A DNA stretch of 30,943 nt from a virus. Lineage: Duplodnaviria; Caudoviricetes. Positions 307-29,800 of this stretch are shown here, in pieces. Position numbers and translations under genes: made by a program. Location of the stretch: positions 1 to 30,943 of IMG/VR virus record IMGVR_UViG_3300010376_000099; one strand, 5' to 3'. Each line of letters opens with the position of its first letter. Within the stretch, counting starts at the first letter, position 1. The notes beneath the pieces are model-generated. The model saw nothing but the letters and a program-made list of their open reading frames with translations, was not told where the DNA came from and did no database searches.

Positions 307-361
307 TACCCTTCTCAAACCACAACTATTTATAGTTGCGCCTCAGTTAAATTTTCCCCTA

Positions 362-3148
362 TCATTTTAAATCTCCATAGCTAGTGCCAATTTTAGCTTC
401 TGCTTTTAATGGTATATCTAAACCCCATTTTGGTCTTCGCTCCATTTCTTCTATTACTATCTGTTTTAGTTCTGTAATAATAGATTTATGCACTACATAT
501 AACAATTCGTCGTGAATGTTATGAGCAAAGCGTATCTGTGTGCGCTGCCACACACGTAACGCAGCATCCATAATGATGATACGATCAAACGCTTGCACAA
601 GGTTTTCAAGGAATTTCCCTCCCCACAGCTTCTTCCTGCCGCCCCCATAAGTAAACTTCCACTCTCCAGCCTCAGCATCGTATCTTAAGTCATGATAGTA
701 TAACCGTAGTCCATTCGGCAGGAGGATGGATTGGTGGTCAACTTTACACGGTCCAATGTCCGTATCGCTACCGCCCATAGCGAGCAGTGGTAAGTATGCA
801 TTCAGCCTATCCCAAAAGGCATCAATGCGGTCATACCTACCGCGATAGAAATTCACAAAGTTATACGCTTCGGGTAGCCCGAAATAGTGGTCTATGCCTG
901 CTTCTTGTGCACCGTAGTTGAGTGACCATTGTAGTTTAGGGCCACCCATACCGAAGCCTAATCCAAGGATGCAGGTCTTACCAGCGAACCGCTCCAATGG
1001 TGTTTCTTTTGAACATGGATAACCAAATACATCTGTAGCAAATTCGCTATATACATCTGCCCCAACTTCAAACCGCTGGAGTAAATCTTTTTGTCCTGCG
1101 AACCATGCAGTAAGTCGTGCCTCAATTTGTGATGCATCAACTGCTAAGATCACATGATCCGGTGGAACGATAATAGCGTCCCTAAGTGTTTTAGTTTTCT
1201 TTGATGGTAAGTTCTGGCAATTTCCAGTAATAAAAATTGCGCCATTATATCGAACAATAATAAATGAACTGGTAACTTGCGGACAATAAACTTTTCCATT
1301 ATAGGGTTTTTTAAGACTTTGAATTTTAGAAATAGACGTTGTTTTGCTTTCTCTAAAATATACATCATATCTAGAAGAATAAAATTTAAGCGTAGCTGGC
1401 CTACCGCGTAGGAAGCCAATTGTTTGGACCCATTGAGCTTCACTAAGTATAGTTGTGTAAAAGATTATTTGTTTTTGATTTTGGCAATACATTCCATCCC
1501 AATGTGGAAGTTCATCTAAAAATATATCCATGCATTCAGGCGACAATGATAACACCCATTCATTTATTCCTTTTTGCATCCATATAGGAGTATTACTACC
1601 TCTAATAGTAAACTGAGTTAAATGTCCATCTGACCATTCGTTAAATATAATCTGTTCATCTTGTAAAAGCTTTCGCAGACGGTCAATTTTTCTCTGTTTA
1701 ATAAATCCAAATTGCCAACCACCTTTCCATTCTGTTTGTCTTGGTTCATCGTTACTACTACCAATATTTTCATATAGTTTACTACCATCAGCAGAGAGCG
1801 CAACAAGTATTTTTGTCTGATTTAGAGTAAATCTATTTAAAGTATTTTCAAATCTTCCATGTATAGGGATATTATCGAGTCTACTTTGTTCTATTTCTCC
1901 AGCCAATTTTATGCGTATACGCCCTTTATACCAATACGGTATGCGATGATTTGTAGTAAAACCCCCATTGACAAATGGGGCATTAAACCAAATTAAATAA
2001 CTATTTTCTTGTCGCTCTATTTTCTTTGCTGCGATTTCCCATTCTAATTTACCATCAGGAAACCATTGCATAATAGGCGTTTCGGGTTGCCAATCCTCTA
2101 TCCGTTGCCATCCATTAGGTGTAAATACTTCCATATCAGGATGTAAACAATTAAGCCCCCAATCTCCTGATAGTCTATGCGTGTGCGCGCCGCTGTAGCG
2201 TAATGCCATGGGAATAACTGGTTCGGTCCAACTATTTATAGTTGCTTCACCAATGCGGATAAACTTCTCTGTGCGTGTTTCCTCAAGTGTGGACTTAATC
2301 CCTAGTCGCGCCGCTACTAAAGCTTGCACGTCAGGATCAGGATGCTCTGCCAACGCCATAAATTCAAAGTCAGTCTTGGCAAATGCATAAGAGAGTTTTT
2401 TTGTAACCTGTGAGATTTTCGTAGGTGGATCAATATTATACGATCTGAGTAATTCTGCGAACTGCACGTTAGATGCTAAGACTTGTGGGGTAGTGCTTAC
2501 CTTCTCTAATAGTTCTGCCTTTGCTTGTTTTACATTATATAAATGCTCGTATAGTTTGTTCAGGTCCAATGAGAGTGCTGGTTGCGTAGTGGTCTTAATG
2601 ACCATATCCATAATAATGTGTTCGGCAGAGGGAAAGTCCATTACCAGCTTATAGTATATCGCCCTACACAAGTCACAGTCTGTGCGCCCATAGTCTACAA
2701 ACCTAGTATAAAACTCAGGATCGCTTTCTATCTCGTCAGCGCGTTTGTTCTTAGTTTGAAGTATAAACTCACTCTTCCTGCCGACACCTAAATATGCGGC
2801 TGTCTTTTCGAGTGAAGCGCGGCCGTTTGGTAAGAACGCCATGAGTAAAGCGCGGGCCATACCTAGCGTATCTATTAGTAAGGTGGGATGGATACCGTAG
2901 CGATAGGATAATATGGACGCATCAAACAATGCGTTATGGGATATAAACATATAAGGTTTAGTTTGTGAATTAAGATAATCTACTATCTGTTCACGCGGCA
3001 ACCATTGCGGAGGTTTAAATTCATCTTCGGCGACTGAACAACCAATACACTCAAAGCGCGCATCGAGTATATACTCAATTGGTGTCATTTTCTTGAGTGT
3101 GTAATCATCGCTCCAGAAGGTTTCAAAGTCGCCGAAGATGCGTTTCAT
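362..3148 (-). CDS. Phage family A DNA polymerase with intein
   Basis: N-terminal 3'-5' exonuclease motifs (DFET, HNALFD), THRLSG..N/CQNLP, motif A DASQIEAR, motif B RFAGKTCILGLGFG, motif C HDEL. Confidence 0.95.
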   Translation of the reverse strand: MKRIFGDFETFWSDDYTLKKMTPIEYILDARFECIGCSVAEDEFKPPQWLPREQIVDYLNSQTKPYMFISHNALFDASILSYRYGIHPTLLIDTLGMARALLMAFLPNGRASLEKTAAYLGVGRKSEFILQTKNKRADEIESDPEFYTRFVDYGRTDCDLCRAIYYKLVMDFPSAEHIIMDMVIKTTTQPALSLDLNKLYEHLYNVKQAKAELLEKVSTTPQVLASNVQFAELLRSYNIDPPTKISQVTKKLSYAFAKTDFEFMALAEHPDPDVQALVAARLGIKSTLEETRTEKFIRIGEATINSWTEPVIPMALRYSGAHTHRLSGDWGLNCLHPDMEVFTPNGWQRIEDWQPETPIMQWFPDGKLEWEIAAKKIERQENSYLIWFNAPFVNGGFTTNHRIPYWYKGRIRIKLAGEIEQSRLDNIPIHGRFENTLNRFTLNQTKILVALSADGSKLYENIGSSNDEPRQTEWKGGWQFGFIKQRKIDRLRKLLQDEQIIFNEWSDGHLTQFTIRGSNTPIWMQKGINEWVLSLSPECMDIFLDELPHWDGMYCQNQKQIIFYTTILSEAQWVQTIGFLRGRPATLKFYSSRYDVYFRESKTTSISKIQSLKKPYNGKVYCPQVTSSFIIVRYNGAIFITGNCQNLPSKKTKTLRDAIIVPPDHVILAVDASQIEARLTAWFAGQKDLLQRFEVGADVYSEFATDVFGYPCSKETPLERFAGKTCILGLGFGMGGPKLQWSLNYGAQEAGIDHYFGLPEAYNFVNFYRGRYDRIDAFWDRLNAYLPLLAMGGSDTDIGPCKVDHQSILLPNGLRLYYHDLRYDAEAGEWKFTYGGGRKKLWGGKFLENLVQAFDRIIIMDAALRVWQRTQIRFAHNIHDELLYVVHKSIITELKQIVIEEMERRPKWGLDIPLKAEAKIGTSYGDLK
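1220..2149 (-). mobile_element. Intein (310 aa) with LAGLIDADG-like homing endonuclease domain
   Basis: Starts CLHPDMEVFTPNGW, block B TTNH, LVALSADGS and FLDELPHWDG motifs, ends VYCPQV...IFITGN followed by Cys+1. Removal restores WGLN-CQNLP. AT-rich relative to flanks. Confidence 0.92.
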
Positions 3149-3561: not shown

Positions 3562-3573
3562 AACACACTCTAA

Positions 3574-3723
3574 CTATTTATAGTAGCGCAGCATCCACCA
3601 TCTACTCGGTAATTGTATAGAGATACGAGAATAGACAAATCTCATACGCCACTGCGCACATCCTCGCGTTCGCCTTTTTATAGATTTTATTCGCAATCTT
3701 TTAAATAATTGAAAATGGGTCAT
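3574..3723 (-). CDS. Small basic hypothetical protein (49 aa)
   Basis: MTHFQLFKRLRIKSIKRRTRGCAQWRMRFVYSRISIQLPSRWWMLRYYK; fills the gap between neighbours; its TAG is supplied by the palindrome at 3572. Confidence 0.5.
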   Translation of the reverse strand: MTHFQLFKRLRIKSIKRRTRGCAQWRMRFVYSRISIQLPSRWWMLRYYK

Positions 3724-4384: not shown

Positions 4385-4627
4385 TTAGTCCTCTCCATTA
4401 TGATACTTACGAATTACTTCGTGCATCTTCTCTACCGCTAATTCTTTGGGCAAGTCTTCTTTAAGTTTACGCAAAAATGCAGCCGCGCGCCCCCATACAT
4501 TTGCAGCTATCGTATTATCACGTTTAGCTTGTTTATCTGTTTGCTTACTCGCTCGCATATGAAGTTCATGACTTGTTTGTGTAAATATATTTGCTAATTC
4601 CTCCAAGAGGATTTGCGCAGTTTTCAT
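4385..4627 (-). CDS. Hypothetical protein
   Basis: 80 aa ORF; ATGA overlap with upstream gene. Confidence 0.75.
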   Translation of the reverse strand: MKTAQILLEELANIFTQTSHELHMRASKQTDKQAKRDNTIAANVWGRAAAFLRKLKEDLPKELAVEKMHEVIRKYHNGED

Positions 4628-5205
4628 TTTTTCCCCCTAACCTCCGCTATTGCTTTTAACATATGAAGCGAATCTTTATAAGTTCCATCAGGATTAATGT
4701 GTTCGTCTCCAGTTACCTCTATCTTTGAGTTTTTACTTGACATTTCCAAAAACCCATGACCTGTGAATACAGGCGGCAAGAGAACGAGGGCGTCCACTGC
4801 ATTATAACGCACTAACGCCAATATGTTACGCTTGCTTAGGCGTTCAAGATGTGCACGTAATGCGGGGTCACGGTGAGCATCTGGATAGTCAGGGTCGCAC
4901 CATATCTGAATAGCTCTAAATTCTTGACTAACCCCATACTCTGAACTATCAATAGTTACTTTGTCAGGCATCGGATCAATGACATAATGCGTCCTATCGG
5001 GACGCCCTAACCCCTCAGTGTTATCTCCGAGCAACCACACACAGGACCATAGCCTACACTCAGGTGAAATGCCCATAAGTTGTTTATAGATAGCGCACCC
5101 CTTCCTGTGCCGTTGGTATTTGCACTTATGGCCCGCACCTTTATTGATAGAGGTAACAGGCAATAACTTGCAGCATAGCTGGCAAGAACCACATTCACGC
5201 TTCAT
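4624..5205 (-). CDS. CxxCxxCC cysteine-cluster (YkgJ-like Zn/Fe-chelating) protein
   Basis: RECGSCQLCCK...KC...GCAIY...PECRLWSCVWL pattern. Confidence 0.75.
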   Translation of the reverse strand: MKRECGSCQLCCKLLPVTSINKGAGHKCKYQRHRKGCAIYKQLMGISPECRLWSCVWLLGDNTEGLGRPDRTHYVIDPMPDKVTIDSSEYGVSQEFRAIQIWCDPDYPDAHRDPALRAHLERLSKRNILALVRYNAVDALVLLPPVFTGHGFLEMSSKNSKIEVTGDEHINPDGTYKDSLHMLKAIAEVRGKK

Positions 5206-5639
5206 TTTGCACCACCGTTCTTATATGCTGCATAGCGATACAAACCTGCTTTACGTGCTGCTGTGCTGATATAAGGTTGCGACACACCCTCTTGTTCAGC
5301 AATGTCTGTAAGAGGCACACCTGCTCTATATAAGCGAAGCACAGCTTTACGCTTCTCCGGTCCATATGATCCACCAGGACCATGAGTTTTAATACCAGCC
5401 AGTTTTACATAGCGATGAATAGTCCCTCTTGCACAACCGTATTTTTCTGCAATATCCCTAACTTTCATACCAGCTTCGTAATCTTTTACAACTGCTAACA
5501 TGCGTGGTGGTCTATTCTCCAATTCGGCAAGGAAAGAAATAACCTCCTTATTGCTGCGCACCAACCTAACTAATGCTGGTGGTGCTTTTCCTGTTTTTAT
5601 ATAAGTGGCGACTTGATCTAACCTGAAACGCATCCTCAT
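5202..5639 (-). CDS. Tandem helix-turn-helix DNA-binding protein
   Basis: Two HTH motifs: GMKVRDIAEKYGCARGTIHRYVK and GVPLTDIAEQEGVSQPYISTAAR; GGAAAGGA RBS. Confidence 0.85.
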   Translation of the reverse strand: MRMRFRLDQVATYIKTGKAPPALVRLVRSNKEVISFLAELENRPPRMLAVVKDYEAGMKVRDIAEKYGCARGTIHRYVKLAGIKTHGPGGSYGPEKRKAVLRLYRAGVPLTDIAEQEGVSQPYISTAARKAGLYRYAAYKNGGAK

Positions 5640-5665
5640 TTCCTTTCCAACTATCTATAGTTGTC

Positions 5666-6806: not shown

Positions 6807-6976
6807 TGTCCCAACCCCGGGCGGTTGATGTAGCGCTCCAGCGCGCTGTGAACCTTGATCCCTTCGGCGAGCGCCGGGCTGTCTTCTTTGGGCAGATCGC
6901 GCGCGATGTATTTATGCCACGCCTTGCGAGGGCAGTTCGTGAAGTCGTTGAGGAAAGAAAAGGACCAGGGAATCAT
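6800..6976 (-). pseudogene. N-terminal fragment (58 aa) of a PD-(D/E)XK RecB/Cas4-like phage exonuclease
   Basis: MIPWSFSFLNDFTNCPRKAWHKYIARDLPKEDSPALAEGIKVHSALERYINRPGLGQC*; WSxS...CPR...G..VH.ALE motif, no catalytic core; ATGA-coupled to upstream gene. Confidence 0.65.
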
Positions 6977-7170: not shown

Positions 7171-7209
7171 GGTCGCTCTCCTCGCTTACTATCTATAGTT
7201 GACACACCA

Positions 7210-7241: not shown

Positions 7242-7439
7242 TCAACGCTCGATCTGAATAATGAGATATACAGTTTCTTTTTCACCAGTAAATACTGGTC
7301 CTTGTGCTACATCGAACCACTCGTCTAGTATTTCTCCTACTTCTGGCGCGTCACCGTTTACATAGGCGCGAATTTTGTCAACACTTAAATCATGGACAAA
7401 TACATTATCGCCTTCAAGATCAATACGCAGTCCCATCAC
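7242..7439 (-). CDS. Hypothetical protein
   Basis: 65 aa ORF; AGGAG RBS; overlaps VWA gene stop. Confidence 0.7.
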   Translation of the reverse strand: MMGLRIDLEGDNVFVHDLSVDKIRAYVNGDAPEVGEILDEWFDVAQGPVFTGEKETVYLIIQIER

Positions 7440-8761
7440 TGTTCTCCTTTAATAGGGATATAGAGGAAGTCGCCGAACTTTGGCATACGATGGACTTGCT
7501 CTCTCGGCACAGAGGAAGCCCATATGACAGGGAAGGGGGGAGCCTTATCAGGGAACCCGCCGTCCATATCAGTGAAGAATATGAGAATGTCTGGTTCTAG
7601 GCTCTCCTTATATATCTTGTTAAACACTGGTCGGAAGTCTGTTCCACCCCAACCCCTACGCAATGTGCGCTTAAGGTTCGCGCCGTCTAGGATTTCCTCC
7701 CACATCTTGATTTCATCGTCACATTGGCACAAGATAAGCTCACGCGGGCGGGCATCCTCAAGGATGTTCCCTGTTGCCGCCATGAATATGTCGGACATTT
7801 TCTGTGTGATAGAACCAGAACTGTCCTGTGCCACAACCACCCGACCAACGCCCCATGCTATGCGCCCAGGTGCACCAATACCACGGATGACAAACTCTTC
7901 ATCCAAGTTATCCCACGTTTGCCTACCATTACCCACACGGCGATTGAACGTGGTGCGTAGCTTCTCCTGCCACGGAATATCCGGTTCTACAGCTTTACCG
8001 AATACACCCTCAAGATTGCCAGTTCCAGTGCCACGGCCCTTCATGCTAGCTTTCGCTGCTGTGATAGCCATGTCCCATGCTTGCTGATCGCGTTCGCTCA
8101 TTGCTTGTGACGGCGACTTGCCGCGAGCTTCTCCAGGGGTCATATGAACGTCGAACCCCTTTGAACTATTTATAGTTGAGCCGCCACCGTTTTGCTTCTG
8201 TTGCTGCTGATACTTAAACAGCTTGCGATAGGCATCAATAATGCTTATTTCTCCAGTAATCAAACCGGGGAAGTGAATAGCATCCTCTGGCATTTCGCCA
8301 ACTTTGGCATCTAGCAAGCCAGCATTGATAACTCCGTCAGCCGCTCGCTGCATAGTGTTATCATCATAAGGTAATCGCTCGCCATCAGGATACAGAATAG
8401 CCCCGGCAAGACGAAGACGATACATAATCGCGCAATGCCCCATCATCGCATGCCAAATCTCATGACAACCGATGAATATGCGGCACTCAAGTTTGCGTGT
8501 AAGATATTTGAGCGGGTTTAAATACAGAAACCTATCGTCTGTTCCTGCCGTTTGCACTTGATCCGTGAACCAAGCTTGCTCGCCTTTCTCACCTACCATC
8601 ATAGAATAGAGAATGTCAGTAAAAGCAGGTTGCGCCCACAACATTGCAGTGCGCGTTTTGTCCCACTCATACTGTTGCTGTGTATCAAGCTTTAACTGTG
8701 TCCAGTTATGAGCCTGACCCACAAGCGGCGCTTTAAGGTTCGCCAACCCTGCTAGTTCCAT
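7436..8761 (-). CDS. VWA-like domain / HEXXH metallopeptidase-like protein (DUF2201 type)
   Basis: TAGTD, CHEIWH zincin motif, MIDAS DSSGS, GWGGTDFRPVF, FFTDMDG..P. Confidence 0.9.
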   Translation of the reverse strand: MELAGLANLKAPLVGQAHNWTQLKLDTQQQYEWDKTRTAMLWAQPAFTDILYSMMVGEKGEQAWFTDQVQTAGTDDRFLYLNPLKYLTRKLECRIFIGCHEIWHAMMGHCAIMYRLRLAGAILYPDGERLPYDDNTMQRAADGVINAGLLDAKVGEMPEDAIHFPGLITGEISIIDAYRKLFKYQQQQKQNGGGSTINSSKGFDVHMTPGEARGKSPSQAMSERDQQAWDMAITAAKASMKGRGTGTGNLEGVFGKAVEPDIPWQEKLRTTFNRRVGNGRQTWDNLDEEFVIRGIGAPGRIAWGVGRVVVAQDSSGSITQKMSDIFMAATGNILEDARPRELILCQCDDEIKMWEEILDGANLKRTLRRGWGGTDFRPVFNKIYKESLEPDILIFFTDMDGGFPDKAPPFPVIWASSVPREQVHRMPKFGDFLYIPIKGEQ

Positions 8762-9041: not shown

Positions 9042-9124
9042 TGTAATTTCCTCGTTTTGGGGGTCTGCCCCAGATACGCCGTTTTTTAGGCGGCGCATCC
9101 AATCCGCAGACCAACTATAGATAG

Positions 9125-10234
9125 TTACCCTTGCGAGATAACCGTAAGCAGTCCAACAAGCGCAGATTTCTTTTTACACCATGCGCCAAACTTAGGCGTC
9201 ATAGCAACTTCTGGTTTGTAGGCATATGCTGCCTTCACGAACAAGACCTGAAATTCCTCAGGAAACCGTGACATATAAGTCATGGCAGGTTCAGCATCCT
9301 TCACCTTAACGTCTTTGGCAAGCTTGTAAGCCTGCAAGCGCCACAAGTCAGGACGTTCACGCGGAGGCATTTCAACCCTTTCAGGGTCCTTGATAATGTC
9401 TGCATACTTCGGCAGCGCATGTCCTTCGATAACAAATTTCATATACGCTTCCGCCGCAGACCTACCAATGCCACCTTGCACCAATTCCACCACGTTAGTA
9501 TCAGTGGGAACCTGATCCATGCCGAATGTTTCCATAAGGGTTTGAAGCATGGCATCGGTTTGTGTGAGCGTGCGCGGGTTACAATATGGTCCCTGTTCCT
9601 CCGGCGCGGTCATATACACAACCATAGGATGCTTATCTGCAAACTCGATTGTTTCGGGAAGCGCCTTTAGTTCGCGCAACACTTCAACGAACCCCTCAGG
9701 ATCATCTGTCACATCGATCTGATTACGGCGAGTGATAAGGTGATCAAAATCCCGCGTAGCACCCGCGCGATCTTCTGCACGATTACCCGCGAACCATATC
9801 ACCCATCCAGACGGCAAGCGGTGATTGGCAAGCACTTTGTCATAGGCACCCTCGCCCATGATTTTCTTTAAATCAGGGTCCATCATGTGAGCATCATCAA
9901 CTAAGATAATGCCACCATCATATTCGGAAAGATGCTTGCCTTCCTTCGTATATTGCCAGAACGGCTCCGTGAACGTGCTACGCTTACGACCGCTAGGCGC
10001 ATCCTCTGGCCACATATACCCCAACGCACTGCTCATGGTAAGCGTTGCGCCGTTAATAATGACAATCCCAAATTCCTTATCGGGAAATACCTTTTTCATC
10101 ATCTGCGGAAACTTGCGAAGCGTAAAGCTTTTGCCGCCTCCAGGCCGCCCGCGTAGATAATACGACTGGCCACCCTCCTTGACCGACACAAAGTAGAGTG
10201 CCGGCATATATAGTAGTAAAGTCTTGAGTTTCAT
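9125..10234 (-). CDS. MoxR-like AAA+ ATPase
   Basis: Walker A GRPGGGKS, Walker B IILVDD, AGNRAEDRAG, PRT sensor; upstream of the VWA partner. Confidence 0.9.
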   Translation of the reverse strand: MKLKTLLLYMPALYFVSVKEGGQSYYLRGRPGGGKSFTLRKFPQMMKKVFPDKEFGIVIINGATLTMSSALGYMWPEDAPSGRKRSTFTEPFWQYTKEGKHLSEYDGGIILVDDAHMMDPDLKKIMGEGAYDKVLANHRLPSGWVIWFAGNRAEDRAGATRDFDHLITRRNQIDVTDDPEGFVEVLRELKALPETIEFADKHPMVVYMTAPEEQGPYCNPRTLTQTDAMLQTLMETFGMDQVPTDTNVVELVQGGIGRSAAEAYMKFVIEGHALPKYADIIKDPERVEMPPRERPDLWRLQAYKLAKDVKVKDAEPAMTYMSRFPEEFQVLFVKAAYAYKPEVAMTPKFGAWCKKKSALVGLLTVISQG

Positions 10235-10280
10235 GACCTATCCTCGTTTCAACTATAGATAGTTGGGTTTGCTTCCAACT

Positions 10281-10773: not shown

Positions 10774-11324
10774 CCCCTCAGTTTTCTATAACAATATGCA
10801 CCTACTACGTTTTGGGATGCATCGTGTTTATATGCTATTTTTGCAACTGTTGGCCAGTCGTCATATGGCGTATTAGCAAGTAATATCATAATAGACTTGC
10901 CAACTTGCGCTGCAAACTCTTGCGCATGACGGTGTGTATCCTCCTGCTCTCTTTGATGCGCTACACCTTCACGAAAGCCTTTTTCTCGTGCGTATGCTGT
11001 AGGATGTTGGTTTGCCTTTCTCACTTTTGGTTCCTTTTTTGGCTTGACAACGCAACTATCTATAGTTGGTTGCTTCCTCTTTCTCTGCCGCTTTTGTTTC
11101 TGCGGCTTAAGGGTTTGTTGATATTGCTCATAATGCTCTAGCGAACAGAATGGCAAAGTAAACTTATCCTTTTCGTCTTGAGGGTTTGCAGGGTCACGCA
11201 CCCAATAAAATCCGACGTTCTTAGTAGTTGAACAAATGAAACAGCGCTGTAAGCGCGCTGCCTCTTCTCGCATGATGTATGCGCCTTTTGGCGCGCGCAA
11301 TTTCTTAACTGTTTGAATGGTCAT
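10758..11324 (-). CDS. Hypothetical protein with Cys/His Zn-finger-like N-terminus
   Basis: CFIC...FCSLEH; basic linker; start placed at MTIQ (track start 11408 overlaps the upstream small gene). Confidence 0.7.
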   Translation of the reverse strand: MTIQTVKKLRAPKGAYIMREEAARLQRCFICSTTKNVGFYWVRDPANPQDEKDKFTLPFCSLEHYEQYQQTLKPQKQKRQRKRKQPTIDSCVVKPKKEPKVRKANQHPTAYAREKGFREGVAHQREQEDTHRHAQEFAAQVGKSIMILLANTPYDDWPTVAKIAYKHDASQNVVGAYCYRKLRGWPWP

Positions 11325-11694: not shown

Positions 11695-11772
11695 CGTAAC
11701 CGTCCTTTCCAACTATCTATAGTTGATTTTCTTCGTGCTGTTAGATCAGCTCTTTTTGTTATTTGTTCGAGA

Positions 11773-12289: not shown

Positions 12290-12495
12290 GTTGGTTCCTC
12301 GTTTGAGAGACAACTATAGATAGTTGCGAGGAAACAAACCACGCATTTATAGCGTGTTTATTTCAATTGCCGTCCTATTTACGATGTTTAGAGCAAATCA
12401 CATTTGATGTTCTGGAGTTTAGACCATTGCATCATTGAACCGGCAGGGGAAGATTGCGCCCTCCTCTGCCGGTCTGTCATGCAACTATCTATAGT

Positions 12496-13674
12496 TTATT
12501 CAGCCGCTTGCGCCTGCGCCTCAGCTGCCGCTTTCTTCGCGGCCTTTTCGGCCTTGTCCTTGGCCGCTTGCGCGTCCTTGGCCGCTTTCTCAGCTTTCCG
12601 CTTTGCAGCGTTATCGGCAACGCGCTTTGCATCGTCGATTTTCTTTTGAGCGGCTGCTTTCAGCCTATCTTCGCGCTCTTTGCGGAACCCCTTATGAAAT
12701 GCCTCACCCGCATAATACAGGTAATCAATGGCAAATCGCAGGGATTGACCGGCGGAACCCTTTTTCTCGTCTTTTAGGTCCACCGGGCGACGCGCCCAAA
12801 CATCCCCCGTCTTCTCTTGTTCAGGGGTGACGTTATCCCGCTCCTTGCCTTCCGCGACGCGTTCACACGCGCGAATTGCATCATCAAGAACATCAAAAAT
12901 GTCCTTATCGCGGGTTTGGCCCTCCGGCATAAGAACTTTAGCGATTTCATCCGCCGTCAGAAGATTAGGATGAATGAAACGCTTGGCAGTTCCCTTGCCG
13001 CTTGTAGGATCAGGACGCATTTGTTCGCGCGCCACGTCAAGCAAAGCTTCATACGTTGGCAGGGTTTTGAGAGTGTTCCGAATTGCCTTTCCGCCGCGCA
13101 ATGCCGCAACATGAGCATCCCGCGCCTTCTCAAGCATATCGTCCCACCCTTCAATACCATGCTTTGCGCCCAAGTTGTAAAACACCTTAAGCTTTCCGCC
13201 TTGGGCCTTCACAGCCGCTTCGTCAACTTCCGCCTCCGTAGCGTTTTTGCCAGCGGCAGTGTTAGAGCCGAGACGAAACCGCCGATACACTTCATTTAGC
13301 ATCTTCGGCGGAATTTCCGAAGTGTGGCCCGCTTTGGTGATTTTCTCAGCGAGCGCAATAAGAGACGAAAGCCCCTTACCGCGATCCGCGCCCAAAGCCT
13401 GAACTTCGTTCAAGAACGTTTCTTGCGCTGCTTTCTCATTCGCGGCGCGTTGCTCCGCGCTAGCAGCATCTTCCTCAGGGGCTTCATCCCCTTCGGTTTC
13501 ATCGTTCTCTTCCTCAGGGGCTTCATCCCCTTCGGTTTCATCCTCGTTTTCCAATTCCTCCGCGTTCTCCAACCCTTCTAACCCTTCCGTCTCGTTTTCC
13601 TCAACAGGCGGGGCAGGCGGGGCGGAAACCGGAGCGGCAGGATTAGCGAGGGTAACTCTGGTATTCTTAGCCAT
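12496..13674 (-). CDS. Early protein with acidic repeat N-terminus and Ala/Lys-rich C-terminus
   Basis: 392 aa; GAGG RBS; GC-richer than flanks. Confidence 0.9.
   Translation of the reverse strand: MAKNTRVTLANPAAPVSAPPAPPVEENETEGLEGLENAEELENEDETEGDEAPEEENDETEGDEAPEEDAASAEQRAANEKAAQETFLNEVQALGADRGKGLSSLIALAEKITKAGHTSEIPPKMLNEVYRRFRLGSNTAAGKNATEAEVDEAAVKAQGGKLKVFYNLGAKHGIEGWDDMLEKARDAHVAALRGGKAIRNTLKTLPTYEALLDVAREQMRPDPTSGKGTAKRFIHPNLLTADEIAKVLMPEGQTRDKDIFDVLDDAIRACERVAEGKERDNVTPEQEKTGDVWARRPVDLKDEKKGSAGQSLRFAIDYLYYAGEAFHKGFRKEREDRLKAAAQKKIDDAKRVADNAAKRKAEKAAKDAQAAKDKAEKAAKKAAAEAQAQAAE
13469..13542. repeat. 35-bp exact direct repeat (39-bp period) within CDS
   Basis: TCTTCCTCAGGGGCTTCATCCCCTTCGGTTTCATC at 13469 and 13508; encodes DETEGDEAPEE twice. 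Confidence 0.9.
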
Positions 13675-13936
13675 TTTGTGATTTCCTCAGATTGCAACGC
13701 CAATGGCCGCACAAGCGGGATGCTTGGCGGTCCAAAAGCGTTTACGATGACAAACAACGCGATTTAAGAGCTAAAACCCTAACAAAACCAGCTACTTAAA
13801 CCGAAGCGAACTACAGATGCAATCCGCCCGAAGAAACGTAGATCACAGTTCAAGCGGCAAGTCAAGGGGGTTGTTAAGTGCTTGTTTTTGTTCAACTAAT
13901 AGGTGCTACACACTGTAGCAACTATCTATAGTTGCA

Positions 13937-14164: not shown

Positions 14165-14204
14165 GATACACTCCAACTATTGAGAGTTCACAGCACATTA
14201 CCCC

Positions 14205-14477: not shown

Positions 14478-15110
14478 ATTGTATACTCCAATAGAGTCAG
14501 ATTTTCCCAAATGTTCCTAAGTGTTAGGATACTTTGAGATAGTCGAGATTTGATCTTTCTATTGTGGCAATAGTGTGAGCTTAGCGAGCTACTGTGAATT
14601 TAATATGGTGTATGAATTATTGGAGCATTGAAATTGCAGGGATTTTTGCATTTTTATTTAATTAAATGTAAGTCGAGCAGATGTAACCCCCTGATGATGT
14701 GAGCGCGTTCATGTGCGTATGCGCTCGTGTGAGGGTCCTTACGTATAGGATTATATGAAATGATTGTTTTATTTTTAATATAATATATATGTCACACTTT
14801 CCACTCCCTGCCGCTGTGAAATCCAAAATCGGCCATTTTTTTGCAAATGTTAGGAACATTCACGAACATTTGGCCATAATGGAGGGTTTCCAACGCTGGC
14901 CCACTCCCAAAACCGCGCATGCGACTATCGATAGTTGGAAAGACCCCATTATGGGGGGGTGACGGTGCAACCAGGTAGCGGTTTTGTGATGTTATAACGT
15001 AACGCTGGAACGCCATATTTTTTGATCGGGCCAGCGACCCCACGGCCAGATGGACAGGCGGGGGCGGGGCACGCGGCGGCGTTTAGGTATCTCATCATCA
15101 CATTACCCCA

Positions 15111-15298: not shown

Positions 15299-15365
15299 GT
15301 GATTGATGAAGAGGCGATGGACGCGCGAACCCCACCCCAAGGACCACCAACTATAAATAGTTCGC

Positions 15366-15815: not shown

Positions 15816-16021
15816 AGTATTGAGCGGAGGACAACTTCACCGCTTGGGGGCACCTCCTGCCTACCCCCTCACTTGGTGCCCCCACTTTTCCAACTATTGA
15901 TAGTTGTTTTGTAGATCGTGAAGAAATACTTAGAGAATATCTTAGAGAATATGATTGACTAAAAAGGTGTCCTATTTCGACCTTTATTAAATACAATGCG
16001 CCTCCAATACTTAGCCGCTTC

Positions 16022-17538: not shown

Positions 17539-17556
17539 GCTCTACAAATTTTCATA

Positions 17557-18120
17557 TTAGTCTCCGCTAAACTTCTTGGGTTCGTAGCCCGGTGGATCGA
17601 AGTTAATCTCAAATCGTGGGTCGGTAGGTGCAGGCTCTAAATCATCTTCAGTTTGAGCAGGGAGCACTGAACTATCTATAGTTATGGGAGCAACGCCTTG
17701 GCCTATGTTTATTTCTATATGGAACCCACCCCCTTCACTGCCGCTTCCAATAGGATCGGGGTTGCCAAGACCACCTATGCGCGCCAGAGTTTTGAATGCT
17801 TCTACTCTGGCAGCCATAGGTTCACTGTTATCTGTCATAAATCCAACCATGCTAGGAATGCTCTCTTCGACGGCCCACTGGCTTTTGAGTTTGATACGCT
17901 TTGCACTATTACTTGCTGCATTCCATTCGGTAACGGCTTGTGTTAGTAATTTTTGGAACACTGCAAGCTGTTCTATCTCTTCGTAGTCCTCTTCTGTCAT
18001 TCCCAAATTCTTAAGTATTTGCTCGCGGTCTAAGTATCCACGAGCTATTTCCTGTGCCAGAACATGCATTATTCTGGCTTGTTCTTCAGTGATTGTGACA
18101 GATAGGGCCTTTTTCATCAC
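17557..18120 (-). CDS. Putative terminase small subunit
   Basis: N-terminal HTH-like segment (EQILKNLGMTEEDYEEI), helical core, C-terminal GGFHIEINIG beta-strand; lies between terL and portal; no other TerS candidate seen. Confidence 0.5.
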   Translation of the reverse strand: MMKKALSVTITEEQARIMHVLAQEIARGYLDREQILKNLGMTEEDYEEIEQLAVFQKLLTQAVTEWNAASNSAKRIKLKSQWAVEESIPSMVGFMTDNSEPMAARVEAFKTLARIGGLGNPDPIGSGSEGGGFHIEINIGQGVAPITIDSSVLPAQTEDDLEPAPTDPRFEINFDPPGYEPKKFSGD

Positions 18121-18203: not shown

Positions 18204-18242
18204 GCCGTCCAAAGTAGCTCAACTATTGATAGTTGAGGGAGG

Positions 18243-20567
18243 ATGACAAGAAGGCGAGGGGAAACGATGGCCCCAAATGTGCCATTTAGGGTGGTAGGAC
18301 CGAACGAAACCGCAGCGCAATATGATGCGGTAGCGGCTAGTAAAGCTCTCACTCAGTATCCCCCACGCTCCACTCCAAGCATGACAGGTTTAGCTGGTTT
18401 CATTTGGGACCAGTGGATGCTCATGAGGCGGCATCGTGATACAGCATCTAGTGGATGGTCTTATCGCCTGCTTAGGGCGCTTAGGGCTTTTAATGGCGAG
18501 TATGAGCCGGAGCAGATAGTAGCGATTAAAAAGTTTGGCGGATCAGAGGTTTATGCTCGACTTATCGCGATGAAGTGCCGAGGCACCACGTCCCTCTTGC
18601 GTGATGTGTATCTTGGTCCAGAGCGTCCTTGGGGTCTTGAGCCTGATCCTGATCCGCCAATCCCTGACGAGATTATTCAATCAATCCAGCAATTAGTTCA
18701 TAACGAAATGACCCAAGCGGTGGCGGGACACCATGCAGGGTTGCAAGCTATTTCAGCACACCATCATGCAGTGCAACAAGTTCATGCATGGGGGATGCAA
18801 AGTGGTCAAACGGTTCAGCAAGTCCAACAATCAATCCCACCGCCACCGCCGCCTGCGCCTCCGATTCCTGACGCGAATGCAATACGTGACCGAATCCTTA
18901 TGCTTGAGGAAGCAGCGCGTGATGCGGCGAAAGCGAAATGCGCGAAACAAACGAAAATTGCTGAGGACAAGATACAAGAAATTTTTAACGTCGGAGGGTT
19001 TTATACGGCCTTTGCAGAGTTTCTAGTTGACCTACCACTGTTTCCCTATGCAGTTTTAAAGGGTCCAACTGTCCGAATTAAAACTGATGTAGAATGGATA
19101 CAAGACCCACCAACTATAAATAGTTCGGACACCAGGGCTACAAAACCGAACAAAGGTGGCCAACGTCGTCCGATAGTAACTAATAAGCCTATTCTTACGT
19201 GGAGCCGCATTTCTCCCTTTGATGTATATTGGACACCCGGTGTTTCAGACATTGAGAACGCGAACGTTATCGAACGTAGTCGGCTCACTCGTGCTGAGAT
19301 TAATGATCTTCTTGATCTGCCGGGGTTTAATACTGATGAAGTTCGCGCCGTCTTGGATGAATACGGCCGTGGTGGGCTTGTTGACACTTGGGATCAAACT
19401 GACAGTCCCCGTGCTATTTTGGAGTCAAGGGAAGACCCACGATTTAACCAATCAGGTTTGATTAGTTGTTTAGAGTTCCAGGGTAATGCTCAGGGACAAC
19501 ATCTTTTAGATATTGGGTTTGATCCTTCACAAATTTCTGATCCTTTACGAGACTATCATATTCAAGCTTGGTTGATAGGTCGCCATGTCATCAAAGCTCA
19601 ACTTACCCCCTCACCACGAAAACGTCATCAATACTACATTACCTCATTTGAGAAAGTCCCAGGAACCCCTGTCGGCAACGGCCTGCCTGATTTACTTACC
19701 GATATTACTACTGTGGCTAATGCTACTCTCCGTTCTCTTGTTAATAATATGTCTATCGCAAGTGGCCCACAAGTTGTTGTCAATGATGATAGATTGGGTG
19801 ACGGCGAGGATGGAGAAGAACTCTATCCCTGGAAACGGTGGCACGTTAAATCTGATCCATTTGGGAATAATACAGAAGCAGCGATTACTTTTTTCAATCC
19901 AGCAAGCAATGCACAAGAGCTTCTTCAAGTATATCAAGCTTTCAGTCAGATTGCTGATGAAATATCCGCCATCCCGAAATTCATGACTGGCACGCCATCT
20001 GCTGGTGTCGGACGCACAGCGTCCGGTTTGAGTATGTTGATGCAGAACTCAGCGAAGGTTCTGCAAACTGTTTGTGCGAATGTGGATCGTGATGTTATAG
20101 GAAAGGTGCTTGAAGGTCTGGTGGATATGGTCTTGTTGACAGATAAAACGGGGCTGTTGACAGGTGATGAAGAAATCAAGGTCCTTGGTGTGGCGGTCGC
20201 AATGCAACGTGAAACGCTGCGACAACGCCAGCTTGAGTTTCTGCAACTTACTGGCAATCCTGTGGATATGCAGATCATCGGGCCGAAGGGCCGTGCAAGT
20301 ATACTACGTGCTGTTAGCGATGGGCTTGGGCTTCCCGGTGCTGATATTGTTCCGTCCGCGGATCAGATGGATGCGCAACAGAAGCAGGCGGCGCTTCAAG
20401 CGCAGTCTCAAGGCATACCGGGCCACGCACAGCAGCCACCTGAGCAGCCAAATCCTGGTGGGCAGGCGCAAGGTGGTCAGCCGTCACAACTAAGCGCGCA
20501 ACAAGGACCTCAGCAAAACTCAGTTCCGAATAGTGGGCCTGCTACAGTCCACGGTGGGCCACAGTAA
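18243..20567 (+). CDS. Portal protein (start may be 18267)
   Basis: 774 aa after terminase; SPFDVYW, GNGLPDLL..NATLRSLVNN.SIASGPQ, RTASGLSMLM motifs; Gln-rich tail typical of podovirus portals. Confidence 0.88.
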   Translation: MTRRRGETMAPNVPFRVVGPNETAAQYDAVAASKALTQYPPRSTPSMTGLAGFIWDQWMLMRRHRDTASSGWSYRLLRALRAFNGEYEPEQIVAIKKFGGSEVYARLIAMKCRGTTSLLRDVYLGPERPWGLEPDPDPPIPDEIIQSIQQLVHNEMTQAVAGHHAGLQAISAHHHAVQQVHAWGMQSGQTVQQVQQSIPPPPPPAPPIPDANAIRDRILMLEEAARDAAKAKCAKQTKIAEDKIQEIFNVGGFYTAFAEFLVDLPLFPYAVLKGPTVRIKTDVEWIQDPPTINSSDTRATKPNKGGQRRPIVTNKPILTWSRISPFDVYWTPGVSDIENANVIERSRLTRAEINDLLDLPGFNTDEVRAVLDEYGRGGLVDTWDQTDSPRAILESREDPRFNQSGLISCLEFQGNAQGQHLLDIGFDPSQISDPLRDYHIQAWLIGRHVIKAQLTPSPRKRHQYYITSFEKVPGTPVGNGLPDLLTDITTVANATLRSLVNNMSIASGPQVVVNDDRLGDGEDGEELYPWKRWHVKSDPFGNNTEAAITFFNPASNAQELLQVYQAFSQIADEISAIPKFMTGTPSAGVGRTASGLSMLMQNSAKVLQTVCANVDRDVIGKVLEGLVDMVLLTDKTGLLTGDEEIKVLGVAVAMQRETLRQRQLEFLQLTGNPVDMQIIGPKGRASILRAVSDGLGLPGADIVPSADQMDAQQKQAALQAQSQGIPGHAQQPPEQPNPGGQAQGGQPSQLSAQQGPQQNSVPNSGPATVHGGPQ

Positions 20568-20621
20568 CTATTTATAGTTGAGTTGGTGTTACAATATTTG
20601 GATCAAACAAGGAGTGGGACA

Positions 20622-21625: not shown

Positions 21626-21654
21626 ACTTAACTATAGATAGTTGGAGAACTGCA

Positions 21655-22696: not shown

Positions 22697-23809
22697 ATGG
22701 CCGATACATCGGGTGTAAAACTACCAGCAGCAGTAGTTGCAGCGGCGAAACGTTCGGAAGAGATTGCTGCGCAGATTAAACAACAACGTGATAGTGGTCA
22801 GCTTACGCATGTTGAGCCGTTTGTGCCGCCGCCACCGCCACCTTACAACCCAACTATAGATAGTTCAACTCCTCCCTCTGCCGATGGTGAAGGCGATTGG
22901 GAACATCAGTTTAAATCTATGAAAGGTCGCTATGAAGCGGCCGAAGCACGCATTCGTAATCAAGCGAGTAACATTTCTGAATTGCAGCGCCTTATCGCTA
23001 TGGGGCCGGTGAACGCCCCTCCGGCCCCTACTGCTGTCCCTCAGAGTGTTCCGCAGCCTCGTTCTCCCTCCCTAAACGGGGCAACGCCCGCGTCCGGTGA
23101 CGTGCGGTTCGGTGGGGGACAGCCTTTTACCCCACCGAAATTTGTGACGGAGAAAGAAACTCAGGAGTATGGACAGGAATTATTAGACATTATGGGGCGG
23201 CGCACGATGGAGATTGTTGCGCCGGAATTTATGAAACTTGGTGATGTTGTTAATAGATTAGTTAGCGAAAATACACAGCTTAAGCAGCAAATGAGCGGTA
23301 TGCGCAATGTCGTATCGCACGATGCTACTGGGCGTTTTTACGATTCGTTGGATAAGGAGCTTCCTGATTGGGAGCAAACTAACAACGATCCACAGTTTTT
23401 ACACTGGCTATCGCAGGTTGATCCCTATTCTGGCCGTGTAAGAAAGGACCTCCTTACTGAGGCTCACTCGCGAAAAGAAGCTTCCCGAGTGCTGTCCTTT
23501 ATTAAGGGGTTCCGAGCAGAGAGAGCCGCCGTCAGTCCTGTCGAGGATTTGCAACCGACGCGGGCAAACGGGGGAGGCAGTAACGCCCCTCCACCGTCCC
23601 CCACGATCGAACTACAAAGCTTGGCAGCACCCGGTCGTGCAAAGTCTGGGCAGCCACCAACGCCCCCGGACAATCCCTTCTTTACTCATGCTCAAGTCAG
23701 TCAGTTTTATGCTGACGTGACTAAGGGCAAGTATGAAGGCCGCGACGCAGAGAAAACGGCTCTTGAACAGCAAATCTTTAGCGCTGCTAAAGAGGGCCGC
23801 GTTCGCTAG
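22697..23809 (+). CDS. Putative capsid scaffolding protein
   Basis: Directly upstream of MCP; coiled-coil and Pro-rich segments; C-terminal AAKEGRVR. Confidence 0.7.
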   Translation: MADTSGVKLPAAVVAAAKRSEEIAAQIKQQRDSGQLTHVEPFVPPPPPPYNPTIDSSTPPSADGEGDWEHQFKSMKGRYEAAEARIRNQASNISELQRLIAMGPVNAPPAPTAVPQSVPQPRSPSLNGATPASGDVRFGGGQPFTPPKFVTEKETQEYGQELLDIMGRRTMEIVAPEFMKLGDVVNRLVSENTQLKQQMSGMRNVVSHDATGRFYDSLDKELPDWEQTNNDPQFLHWLSQVDPYSGRVRKDLLTEAHSRKEASRVLSFIKGFRAERAAVSPVEDLQPTRANGGGSNAPPPSPTIELQSLAAPGRAKSGQPPTPPDNPFFTHAQVSQFYADVTKGKYEGRDAEKTALEQQIFSAAKEGRVR

Positions 23810-24927: not shown

Positions 24928-24951
24928 GACTATCAATAGTTGGGTGTGGCC

Positions 24952-26088: not shown

Positions 26089-26838
26089 ATGGGCATAGCG
26101 GCTGGCCTCCCTGTTAACTACTCGAACGATGCATATTTTTATCCTGACAATACGGGAGTGCTTGGTAGCTTTACTAAGTCACAGGACGCGCAAACACAAG
26201 TTTCACTTGATTACACTTCGATTATACCTACGGGTTTAACTATACTTAGTGCTTCTTTCGTGATTAATTATGGCACCGCGCCACAGTTGGTTATATCAGG
26301 AGCTACGGTCCAAGGAAGCGGTGAAATTATTGGATTTATGGTAAGTGGCGGTTTGAATGGTGTTAAGTATACTATTCAAATATTAGCTAAACTTAGCGAT
26401 GGCGCAACTGTTCTTCAACATACATTGGAAGTTGTTGTTTCAACTCCAGGCGTTAACACTCCTGCTGTTTCTGCTGCTTCATCGCCAGCTACGCCTGTCC
26501 TCCCTATTCCTGCTGCATTTCAACAAGGTCAAATTTTGAATGGTGATGGCACAAAGTTTGGTTCAAGTTTTGTTGTTTATTATGTTAGCGATACTGCACC
26601 GACGACTGCGAATATTTTAGATCGTTGGTATAACACAGTGGATGGGTTGATCTATGATTATGCTACTGATGGCGTTAGCGTATTCTGGGTATCTTCCTCA
26701 ATGCGGCCAGCCGCTTACACGACTGGTCCTACTGCACCTACTGACAATCGAATGGGAGATATGTGGTATGACACTGGTAACAATGTGTTAAAGGTATGGA
26801 TGAATACGGGTTCTGGCCCGGTTTGGTATACCATCTAA
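26089..26838 (+). CDS. Virion structural protein (beta-rich, fibre-associated)
   Basis: 249 aa; repeated AP....GD.WY.T motifs; AGGAG RBS. Confidence 0.7.
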   Translation: MGIAAGLPVNYSNDAYFYPDNTGVLGSFTKSQDAQTQVSLDYTSIIPTGLTILSASFVINYGTAPQLVISGATVQGSGEIIGFMVSGGLNGVKYTIQILAKLSDGATVLQHTLEVVVSTPGVNTPAVSAASSPATPVLPIPAAFQQGQILNGDGTKFGSSFVVYYVSDTAPTTANILDRWYNTVDGLIYDYATDGVSVFWVSSSMRPAAYTTGPTAPTDNRMGDMWYDTGNNVLKVWMNTGSGPVWYTI

Positions 26839-26858
26839 CTATAAATAGTTGGAAGCCA

Positions 26859-29800
26859 ATGAACGATTTTGCCATATTCCCACAAAACCCTGAGAACGGT
26901 GAAATCTATACCGTTCCGGGAGGCATTACGTTTCAATGGACAAGCCCACCTGGGGGATGGGTGCAAGTTGGCGCATGGCATTGGCCACCTGTAGTTGCTC
27001 CCGGTGCATATGCAGAGTTTCCATCTAACCCACAAACAGGCACGAAATATACTTCTCCAGGTGGAGTAATATTTGTTTATACTGATAAAGGCGCATGGCG
27101 TGTTCAGGGTTCCAATGTCTTACCGTCTCCGTGGATGCTTGCTGGCGTCGGCGCGCCTCCCGATATTGAAGGATTTGCCGGAAACTATTACTTGGACGTA
27201 TCAACAGGAGAGCTGTGGGGTCCTTACAATAACGGTGTGTGGCCCTACCCACCTAGCCCGTTCACGCCCGCTCAAGGCACTCCGGGGCCAATGGGACCTC
27301 AGGGGCCGCAAGGACAGCAAGGGTTACAAGGTCCGGTAGGTGCGATAGGCGCACAAGGACCGATTGGCAACACTGGCAACCAAGGAACAACTGGCGCAAC
27401 AGGCCCACAAGGTGTTGCAGGTCCACAAGGACCGGCCGGTTGGACTACGAAAGTATTTGGTTCGTTCTCAGTAAACCCCCCTTCCTCCCTGCCGACTAAT
27501 GGTTTTTTCCCTGCAAATTGGGATAGTTTGGGTAATCCACCTGTTGATACAACTATTCCAATTGGTGGTTCATTAGTTTATACTTCTAATAGTCATCTTT
27601 GGATGTTTGTAGGAACTAACTTTACATCGGCTGGATGGATTGATATTGGGGCTGTTCAAGGTCCACAAGGTATTCAGGGTATACAGGGACAGATGGGGCC
27701 AGCAGGTCCGAATGGTCCACAAGGTCCACAAGGTATTCAAGGTATATCGGGGCCACAAGGTATTCAAGGTATTCAAGGCCAAGTTGGGCAAACTGGCTTA
27801 ACTGGTGCTCAAGGTGTTACGGGGGCAAAAGGTGCTATTGGGGCACAAGGTCTTGCGGGTCCAACCGGGCCAGCAGGACCAATGGGACCAGTAGGGCCAC
27901 CCGGTTCTAGCGTTAAAGTTATTGGAGCTTTTACGAATAAAACACCTAGCACATTACCATCAAATGGTCATATTCCTGCGAATTGGGATGCTCCCGGTGC
28001 TCCTGCTGCTGATTTATATATGCTTGAGGGGCAAGCATTAGAATATACGGTTAATAGCCATATTTGGTTATATGTTACTTCTTCGTTTGTTCCTGCGGGC
28101 TGGATCGATGTTGGTGCAGTTGTTGGTCCGCAAGGTCCAACAGGACCGCAAGGTATAGTAGGTCCGGCTGGCGCGGTTGGTGCTCAGGGCATTCAAGGTG
28201 CTACTGGTGCGCAAGGTGTGCCGGGTATTCAAGGACCGGCAGGTAATCAAGGAACTGCGGGTGCAGTAGGTGCAACGGGACCAGCAGGACCAGTAGGACC
28301 GCAAGGACCAGCAGGACCACAAGGTAATCCGGGGCCACCCGGTGGGTTAGGTGAAGCGCCTACAGATGGTGCGCTTTATGGTCGAGAGAGTTCTGCTTGG
28401 GTAAAAGCGTTACCACTTAGTGGCGGCACATTAACGGGACCACTAACCTTAGCTGGTGATCCAACTTCTGGTCTTGGGGCTGCTTCAAAGAATTATGTTG
28501 ATAGTAATTTGGCATCAATTGGCATTCCTGAAGTGCCAAACGATGGTAATCCATATGTTCGTAAATATGGTAGTTGGGTGCAAGAGGTTATTCAAGCGGA
28601 CGCGCCGAACAATACTACTATTTATAGTAGGAAAGGTCTAGCATGGGTGGCGGACCCACTTCAATCAGATGCACCAAGTGATGGTAAGTTCTATGAGCGC
28701 AACAATGGCGTGTGGTCTGCTAATCCAATTCAAGCAGATGCGCCAAATGATACCAATGCCTATGTTCGTAAAGGGTTAGCATGGGTAGCTAATCCAATTC
28801 AAGCAGATGCGCCAAATGATGCCAATGCTTACGTTCGTCAAGGATTAGCTTGGGTAAGTCAAGCAACGCTAGCTGTGCAAAAAGCTGGCGATACGATGAC
28901 TGGTAATTTAACAATTGCTAAAACATCTGGTGCAAGTTCATTAAATATTAATGCTATTGCAAGCCAACAAGCTAATATTAATTTGCAAGATGCTGGCACG
29001 TCTAAATGGCAAATTGGTAAGCAAACTGATGATAGTTTCTTTATTTTTGATGTAGCAGGTGGTGCGACAGTAATGACTGTTGGTTTAAGTGGTAATACTG
29101 TAATAGGTGAAACGAATAAAGGTGTAACTGTTCCAGGCCAATTTACTGTTGCCCCAACAAGTGGCAATGCTAATTCTGTTATTAATGCGCCCACTGGTGG
29201 CGGTAGTGCTTTCCAATATTTCCAAATAAACGGGGTTACTCAAGCATATTGGCAAGCAAGTCCGACTGGATTTTCTGGTAATGACGGAGCGGGCACACAG
29301 TTTTTCTCGCTTGTTAGTGGTAATATAACGCTTGGTGAAACTGGTAAAACAATTACATCGCCAAGTGTTATGACTGTTAGTTCTCCCGGTGGCACAATTC
29401 CAGCTTCGAGTGGACTTTTAGCTTTAGGTGCTTCTGGTGTGCAACCAATTATTCAAGCATTTGGTCAGGGAGCGCGTGGTTTTATTGGAGCATATCGTGC
29501 TGATGGTTCATATGGAGCTATGACGCCACTTCTTGCAGGGGAGGAAATTGGGCGTATTGGGTTTGTCGGTAGTGATTCTGCTGCTATGGCAACTTCAACT
29601 AATGGTGCTGTGGCTGTATTTGCTGCTGCAAATTGGTCAACTTCCTCGCATCCTGTATATGTTGATATTTACACAACTCCAATTGGTTCGGTTGGAGCGG
29701 GAGTAACGGCACGGTTTCAACCTTCTGGTGGTATGTCGGTTGGTTCTGGTATTGTTGCAACTGACCCAGGTGCAGGTAATTTGCAAGTTCAAGGTGCTGT

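Follow-up and report, generated by a model that had tools for sequence, protein, structure and literature searches.

What reads a palindrome that recurs from end to end of a phage genome, and to what end? The question is raised by the 30,943-nucleotide record IMGVR_UViG_3300010376_000099 of a soil phage (Duplodnaviria; Caudoviricetes), analysed here over its whole length and hereafter called the window, in which the gapped palindrome AACTAT-NN-ATAGTT and its near copies occupy 28 sites. This lattice is a real, strongly selected feature and a family-wide trait, not one peculiar to the window genome. Its reader, as judged from sequence co-variation, is probably the unannotated early protein encoded at 12496-13674; more tentatively, homodimers of that protein, seated on the lattice, may act as two-way transcription roadblocks. 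An earlier note on this sequence had described the palindromes and suggested comparing their spacing with random placement, scanning related phages and host genomes, and searching for a co-occurring gene; the results are given in turn below.

An evenly spaced, phage-private lattice

All 22 perfect copies reported in the earlier note were found where it had placed them, against a mean of 0.02 and a maximum of 1 in shuffled windows (0 of 100 shuffles reached 22). It had also counted six near-perfect variants; those at 3572, 7187, 14175, 14923 and 24928 do differ by one mismatch, whereas that at 28616 carries two symmetric mismatches. With up to two mismatches allowed, the window contains 33 matches versus 1.41 expected. 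The extension of ten copies to CAACTATNNATAGTTG was borne out, as was the restricted choice of palindrome centre (CT 8, TT 6, AG 5, TG 3, AA 3, CA 2, CG 1).

The 28 sites are more even than chance, with a coefficient of variation (CV) of the spacing of 0.51 versus 0.95 under uniform placement (P=0.0004) and a largest gap of 2076 bp (P=0.00045); close pairs and long gaps are both avoided. A gap ceiling of ~2.1 kb, as previously proposed, holds with the variants counted but not for the perfect copies alone, for which the CV is 0.64 (P=0.026) and the largest gap 3985 bp (P=0.35). Both arms of the window are uniformly covered, at 1.0 (early) versus 0.97 (structural) sites per kb. Neighbouring sites display no helical phasing at 10, 10.5 or 11 bp, and no fixed -35 or -10 element was found beside them.

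Two properties had been missed so far. Nineteen of the 28 sites lie at gene junctions or between genes, and the other nine, well within genes, are all in one reading frame, coding T-I-[NDY]-S, such that an embedded stop codon is avoided. The lattice thus comes at a coding cost: the window genes encode nine T-I-[NDYH]-S peptides, every one of them specified by a site, versus 0.25 expected. When the junction sites were held fixed and the in-gene sites randomly re-placed, the observed spacing was still too even, both in the window (P=0.001) and across genomes (P<0.05 in 17 of 21). Contigs from four runs differ by 17 substitutions, none of them in a site, a number too small for any test. The sites, to which no strand is assigned, are as follows.

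324..337, perfect site, separating the stop of PolA from the next gene
2230..2243, perfect site, within PolA (EATINSWT), at a position shared with differently worded sites in relatives G009, G012, G013 and G020
3572..3585, one-mismatch site, 11 bp ahead of a start codon
3948..3961, perfect site, abutting a start codon
4944..4957, perfect site, within gene 4624-5205 (VTIDSS)
5649..5662, perfect site, at a gene junction, 10 bp before the start of a gene (5202-5639) with two helix-turn-helix (HTH) motifs
7187..7200, one-mismatch site, intergenic
8164..8177, perfect site, within the DUF2201 VWA/metallopeptidase gene (STINSS)
9113..9126, perfect site, at the stop of the ATPase gene
10251..10264, perfect site, 17 bp ahead of the start of the ATPase gene
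11054..11067, perfect site, within gene 10758-11408 (PTIDSC)
11711..11724, perfect site, with a consensus sigma-70 promoter ~49 bp upstream
12312..12325, perfect site, directly adjoining a start codon
12483..12496, perfect site, at the stop codon of the candidate reader gene
13920..13933, perfect site, ~250 bp ahead of the candidate reader gene
14175..14188, one-mismatch site, at a gene junction
14923..14936, one-mismatch site, in the interval that separates the divergent arms
15349..15362, perfect site, with a consensus promoter ~51 bp upstream
15892..15905, perfect site, upstream of TerL
17670..17683, perfect site, within the TerS-like gene (ITIDSS)
18221..18234, perfect site, ahead of the portal start and close to divergent promoters
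19112..19125, perfect site, within the portal gene (PTINSS)
20566..20579, perfect site, at the portal stop
21630..21643, perfect site, at a gene junction
22852..22865, perfect site, within the scaffold-like gene (PTIDSS)
24928..24941, one-mismatch site, in the gap that separates the major capsid gene from the adaptor gene
26837..26850, perfect site, at the stop of 26089-26838 and in frame at the head of the fibre open reading frame
28616..28629, two-mismatch symmetric site, within the tail-fibre gene (TTIYSR)

The window represents about half of a ~60-kb phage (CheckV 51%), with a leftward early arm (PolA, ATPase, DUF2201 protein) and a rightward arm (terminase, portal, capsid, fibre). The nearest cultured relatives are the four Rhizobium phages RHph_TM3_14A, TM27A, TM27B and TM29 (MN988472, MN988461-3; 68% identity in the capsid and 50% in TerL), and further relatives are found in Bradyrhizobium, Pseudolabrys and Xanthobacteraceae assemblies. 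A tyrosine integrase is present in 6 of 25 relatives searched and in none of the 11 members searched of the window's clade; a serine resolvase was detected in none of the 25. Integrase-free, plaque-isolated members keep the lattice.

A gapped palindrome of the same build is the top word in all 20 relatives first examined and in a further 26 sequences, weakly in G028. Half-sites follow T-[T/A/C]-A-C-[C/T]-x around a centre of 3 or 4 bases, both spacer lengths coexisting in some genomes, and each lineage has its own wording (TTACC, TTACT, TCACTA and TAACTG among others; CAACTA in the window), which varies even between close relatives; RHph_TM3_14A, for instance, bears TTAC-N8-GTAA 32 times and TTAC-N7-GTAA 14 times. 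Site density is 0.5-1.7 per kb, or about 30-100 sites per near-complete relative, and the spacing is more regular than uniform at P<0.05 in 19 of 27 genomes. At one position in PolA, five genomes carry the wording proper to the phage in question and others carry decayed versions, which suggests that old sites are rewritten as the code drifts.

The lattice is confined to phage DNA. In three prophage-bearing genomes of the family the motif is nearly absent from the host: the host flanks of the three prophage contigs carry no sites, the lattice ends at the prophage borders, and a strict 18-mer occurs in 2-3 copies per host assembly (3.3-7.9 Mb). The exact window motif was searched for in 94 of 116 contigs from a collection scan: 93 have one copy and one, of 416 kb, has two, which is chance level. 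The only multi-copy users seen are two family members, L302 with 6 copies in 8.2 kb and L305 with 2 copies in 4.7 kb; on the portal tree both group with G009 and not with the window. Left and right half-sites vary independently over 1638 sites (z <= 0.35 at all 11 positions), as fits a dimer on duplex DNA and not a hairpin.

Among more distant relatives, rarer palindromes of other wording were seen in G058 (TTAACC-N2-GGTTAA, 11 copies; L432-L434), G061 (CTAC-N1-GTAG, 18 copies; L426-L428) and G063 (TAATCC-N4-GGATTA, 8 copies; L441-L443). None of these three has a profile match to the candidate reader (the syntenic protein of G061 gives a probability of 1.2), and G059, G060 and G062 have no strong palindrome.

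The candidate reader and its proposed residue-base code

Clustering for genes that co-occur with the motif gave one unannotated early gene:

12496..13674, minus strand, candidate reader gene, early, 392 aa, with an acidic N-terminal tail of ~76 residues and an all-helical core
13159..13221, minus strand, putative recognition helix, residues 152-172, with Q158, G160 (codon 13195-13197) and K161

The gene is present in 19 of the 21 genomes of the first set, missing only from two half-genomes, and its product heads a family of 942 clusters. Homologues annotated as hypothetical are encoded by all four cultured Rhizobium phages, that of RHph_TM3_14A being EVB41_028. The window protein has no Pfam or PHROG family match; against solved structures, Foldseek returned nothing at E<=0.001 and sequence searches nothing meaningful. 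Two uncharacterised matches came from a viral structure library, and the protein's Atlas neighbours are viral clusters without a name, DUF3102 coming up at 0.85 and 0.81 only. Neither motif nor protein is described in the titles and abstract openings surveyed, and the main text of PMC8245606, in its available part, does not name TM3.

The monomer model is confident and all-helical (predicted local distance difference test (pLDDT) 92, predicted template modelling score (pTM) 0.84). A homodimer is predicted with a score of 0.56 versus 0.00 for the best control; 20 of 30 known pairs attain this mark, as does 1 of 23 single chains, and the runs share at least 54% of contacts at a pLDDT of at least 73. 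The residues listed for the dimer interface include none of helix 152-172, which does not prove that the helix is free. Within this helix Lys161 is 99% conserved, and the acidic tail has a net charge of -24.

Residue 160 of this protein co-varies with the sites. Wherever half-site position 3 is T or C, the residue is Ser (38 of 38 genomes); the three genomes with A at that position, which sit on separate, well-supported branches, have Ala (G002), Ala (G009) and Gly (the window). Among the 11 of 26 core families that could be tested on all three A-type genomes, residue 160 is the sole diagnostic column; the chance of such a pattern is roughly 0.015 family-wise (4.9e-5 x 307 columns). The 22 genomes added later, two of them near-duplicates, are all Ser and non-A. 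The outgroup G054, with 38 sites, gave a second, anticipated residue/base change: its sites read G7:A3 where A is otherwise near-invariant, and the homologue at the syntenic place, which aligns to the candidate family (hhalign E 1.1e-4, probability 56), has Ala at residue 158, where 40 of 41 members have Gln or Asn, with Ser-Lys kept.

Gln/Asn-adenine and Ala/Gly-thymine-methyl contacts are usual in recognition helices. In a bound dimer the two subunits would each present helix 152-172 to a separate opening of the major groove, the two openings lying about one turn from each other, with Gln/Asn158 pairing with the near-invariant A, Ser160 versus Gly/Ala reading half-site position 3, and Lys161 pairing with the invariant C:G pair. 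The dimeric DNA-binding protein foreseen in the earlier note, here phage-encoded, is supported by the phage-private and lineage-specific motif, the independent halves and a co-varying core protein.

Several observations weigh against this code. G021 has Arg158/Glu161 with its motif unchanged, which contradicts it, and no residue accounts cleanly for half-site positions 6-7. The pattern at residue 160 came to light by eye on 19 proteins, and the 22 later genomes, none of them A-type, test only the Ser side; G028 was left out because its motif is too weak to learn, although the protein is present. For fifteen core families, most of them encoded beyond this half-genome, a test on all three A-type genomes was not possible; on two genomes, one chance column turns up in each of three other proteins. 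Searches for additional A-type genomes recovered only the query or its twin, and L302 and L305, which share the exact window motif, lack the candidate's region. Fifteen further homologues also lack Ser160, P0003, P0030, P0053 and P0066 among them.

Possible roles for the lattice and rival readings

If the candidate does read the lattice, a roadblock role is slightly favoured. Bound dimers may, as a weaker inference, damp read-through and stray transcription; in integrating members they would serve as an immunity system, and in integrase-free members, the window's clade among them, as a carrier-state brake or timing device, with release once replicating genomes outnumber the protein. The site after the reader's own stop would allow the protein to be made while halting read-through. 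Sites peak just ahead of starts and at stops, and 21 of 29 genomes have one just past the candidate's stop. In 14 of 14 genomes the early region carries more sites per kb than the structural one, the difference being sharpest in the integrase-bearing G017 and G030, and an HTH_3 repressor match is absent from five of the six integrase-bearing members. All four observations would count for a roadblock. From the list of roles in the earlier note (coating, silencing, protecting, compacting or translocating the genome), silencing is the best supported, at the level of inference.

Other observations speak against transcriptional roadblocks. The sites are not classical operators. Of the seven strict promoters in the window, six have a site no more than 80 bp away and none is overlapped by one; family-wide, matching for intergenic position leaves no significant link between sites and promoters (odds ratio 2.1, p=0.087). 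Nor is a site at the stop codon special to the reader: SNF2 has one in 14 of 22 genomes and, in held-out genomes, outdoes the candidate (6 of 9 versus 7 of 12). Short early genes offer more junctions, and the window itself has no early bias. With no integrase in 11 of 11 clade members searched, lysogeny cannot explain the upkeep of the lattice there. Even spacing is not obviously needed for repression, and sites in late genes would hinder late expression. Finally, the authors who described the repeats of Cluster O mycobacteriophages judged transcriptional control unlikely for them, in the available part of their report (PMC4351075), a doubt that also weighs for the following alternative.

In this alternative, a close but somewhat less likely rival, the same protein on the same lattice acts on the DNA itself, compacting, tethering or self-marking phage genomes with no control of transcription; as a self-mark it would shield them from processive host or phage nucleases or separate them from co-infecting kin. 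Action on the DNA itself explains the even spacing, with its avoidance of close pairs and long gaps, better than roadblocks do, and the early bias worse. Uniform cover of both window arms, retention in integrase-free, plaque-isolated members, and an excess of sites over promoters (1726 versus 98 strict promoters, with no enrichment after matching) also point to it, as do the acidic tail of the candidate and a wording that differs among close relatives, as a self-label would. Against it stand the denser early regions in all 14 genomes, far more so in G017 and G030, irregular spacing in 8 of 27 genomes, the lack of a ParB domain in 21 genomes, and the lack of any partner nuclease or motor seen to co-vary. 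A bolder form, a shade more doubtful still, is a private chromatin-like lattice, in which a dimer of undescribed fold would sit every ~kb and its code word would co-evolve with the recognition helix; such a lattice would let a phage tell its own genomes from those of host or kin, and count or organise them.

That a different phage protein reads the sites, for example one encoded in the missing half or a small HTH protein, and that the residue-160 match arose by chance, is unlikely. In favour of this reading, only 11 of the 26 core families could be tested as described above, G021 breaks the proposed code, six clade members encode small HTH_3 proteins, and the window has its two-HTH protein at 5202-5639. 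HTH_3 is, however, absent from 14 of 21 lattice-bearing genomes, the window included; eight of the remaining families give none or one chance column on two genomes, or are covered by one genome; and the anticipated change in G054 falls in the candidate. The two-HTH protein (5202-5639, minus strand; weak D5-like PHROG match) was rejected as reader, since none of 26 relatives carries a match.

A host nucleoid-associated or regulatory protein is a very improbable reader: the T-x-A-C-Y core shared by half-sites family-wide leaves some room for it, but host DNA beside the prophages carries no sites, whole host genomes almost none, and the wording differs from one close relative to another and goes with a phage protein. 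Equally improbable are hairpins or cruciforms (as single-strand promoters) and programmed nick or recombination sites: a 6-7-bp arm with a 3-4-base centre could fold, and both spacer lengths do coexist in some genomes, but the halves agree no more than independent draws over the 1638 sites and pairing is therefore not selected.

The novelty lies in naming a candidate reader and in a prediction at the level of residues, dispersed phage dyads without an assigned role being already known (PMC4351075, in its available part). A named protein, a helix and two residue-base pairings open the lattice question to direct experiment, and cultured Rhizobium phages bear both the sites and a candidate homologue. 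If the assignment holds, the candidate would represent a new DNA-binding family of about 900 clusters with natural specificity variants, and these phages would be recoding essential proteins to maintain a ~1-kb binding lattice even without an integrase.

Genome features and known systems

Several genes in and around the lattice are of interest in their own right. PolA (362-3148, minus strand) has 928 aa versus a family median of 633, with an insert at residues ~334-641 that begins with Cys, ends with Gly-Asn before a Cys and looks intein-like by inspection; no intein family is among its Pfam matches, and one PHROG match spans residues 333-582. The ATPase and DUF2201 VWA/metallopeptidase pair (7436-10234, minus strand) is a family core module, each present in 18 of 21 genomes. 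A 58-aa PD-(D/E)XK exonuclease start at 6800-6976 (minus strand), corresponding to ~246 aa in relatives, is a remnant unless the complete gene is located beyond the window. The TerS-like gene (17557-18120) lies on the strand opposite TerL and portal (block 16022-18120); all three are alike in G010, and both terminase genes oppose portal in RHph_TM3_14A, which suggests repeated rearrangement of the terminase block. The tail fibre (26796-30779, plus strand; 1327 aa) contains several collagen repeats and a fibritin-like segment.

Two observations concern relatives. A Pseudolabrys contig (G052:C4) has two identical matches 61,893 bp apart (L204/L205), either a tandem double prophage or an assembly artefact. 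The 'putative integrase' of RHph_TM3_14A (MN988472 42239-45322; L198:7239-10322) matches DUF927 only, and no tyrosine-integrase or resolvase match was found in that record; judged by these sequence matches, the annotation looks doubtful. This phage and its cultured kin differ from the window in wording and in having a 242-aa homologue without the long acidic tail.

Plasmid RK2 is a replicon of ~60 kb and, like the window's phage, carries dispersed operators. According to the available part of PMC11790492, its OB operators repress at up to 1.5 kb and their reader, KorB, is a ParB-family CTPase clamp. The lattice is not such a clamp system: the candidate has no ParB-type match, and ParB_N (PF02195) was found in none of 21 genomes (16 of them at least 90% complete), a control domain being detected in 11 of 14. 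With no ParB domain and with independent halves, neither the ParB/parS nor the nick-site precedents offered in the earlier note gain support. The nick sites of T5 and LUZ24-like phages are, moreover, not known to be dyads.

The best small soluble fold match to the candidate, as a lead only, is the homodimeric repressor RptR (PDB 9R2Z), which, in the available part of PMC12255303, recognises a 6-bp palindrome, arrayed at one promoter, within a single groove and through a DNA-contacting helix with Ser60-Lys61. Four helices match the predicted N-terminal domain of the candidate (Z 6.2-6.7, root mean squared deviation 2.8-3.2 Å, 74/78 residues), but this Z is within the range of chance helical matches, ABCG membrane domains scoring equal or higher. 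The Ser-Lys pair of RptR resembles that of the candidate family, with no correspondence seen at residue level and no sequence likeness (hhalign probability 1.1), and the sites of the phage family differ in being 14-16-bp spaced dyads dispersed genome-wide.

The closest precedent in print, unnamed in the earlier note, is the set of 17-bp dyads of Cluster O mycobacteriophages. The available part of PMC4351075 describes more than 30 spaced inverted repeats, within and between genes, mostly off promoters, absent from the host and in phages without an integrase; they crowd toward the right end, and a dimeric reader is predicted but not identified there. The window, with 28 dyads in 31 kb, and its near-complete relatives, with about 30-100 each, are alike in number, and absence from the host is also found in the three prophage-bearing genomes. 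By contrast, the motif is not the 17-bp one of Corndog, the relatives are Rhizobium/Bradyrhizobium-type phages, and the window lattice is evenly spaced, worded by lineage and accompanied by a co-varying candidate reader.

The stoperators of L5 and other Cluster A phages, as far as the available part of PMC9283540 describes them, comprise more than 20 sites, many in short intergenic spaces, served by one phage reader whose specificity drifts among relatives; these phages are temperate, the sites, 13-mers without symmetry, follow the direction of transcription, and their reader is a monomer that combines HTH and Stoperator domains. The candidate reader is instead a predicted dimer without a Pfam HTH match or a clear fold match, and the window's clade is without integrase (0 of 11 searched). 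By analogy, the lattice would work most like L5 stoperators, yet it is not a member of that class, as its sites are symmetric dyads.

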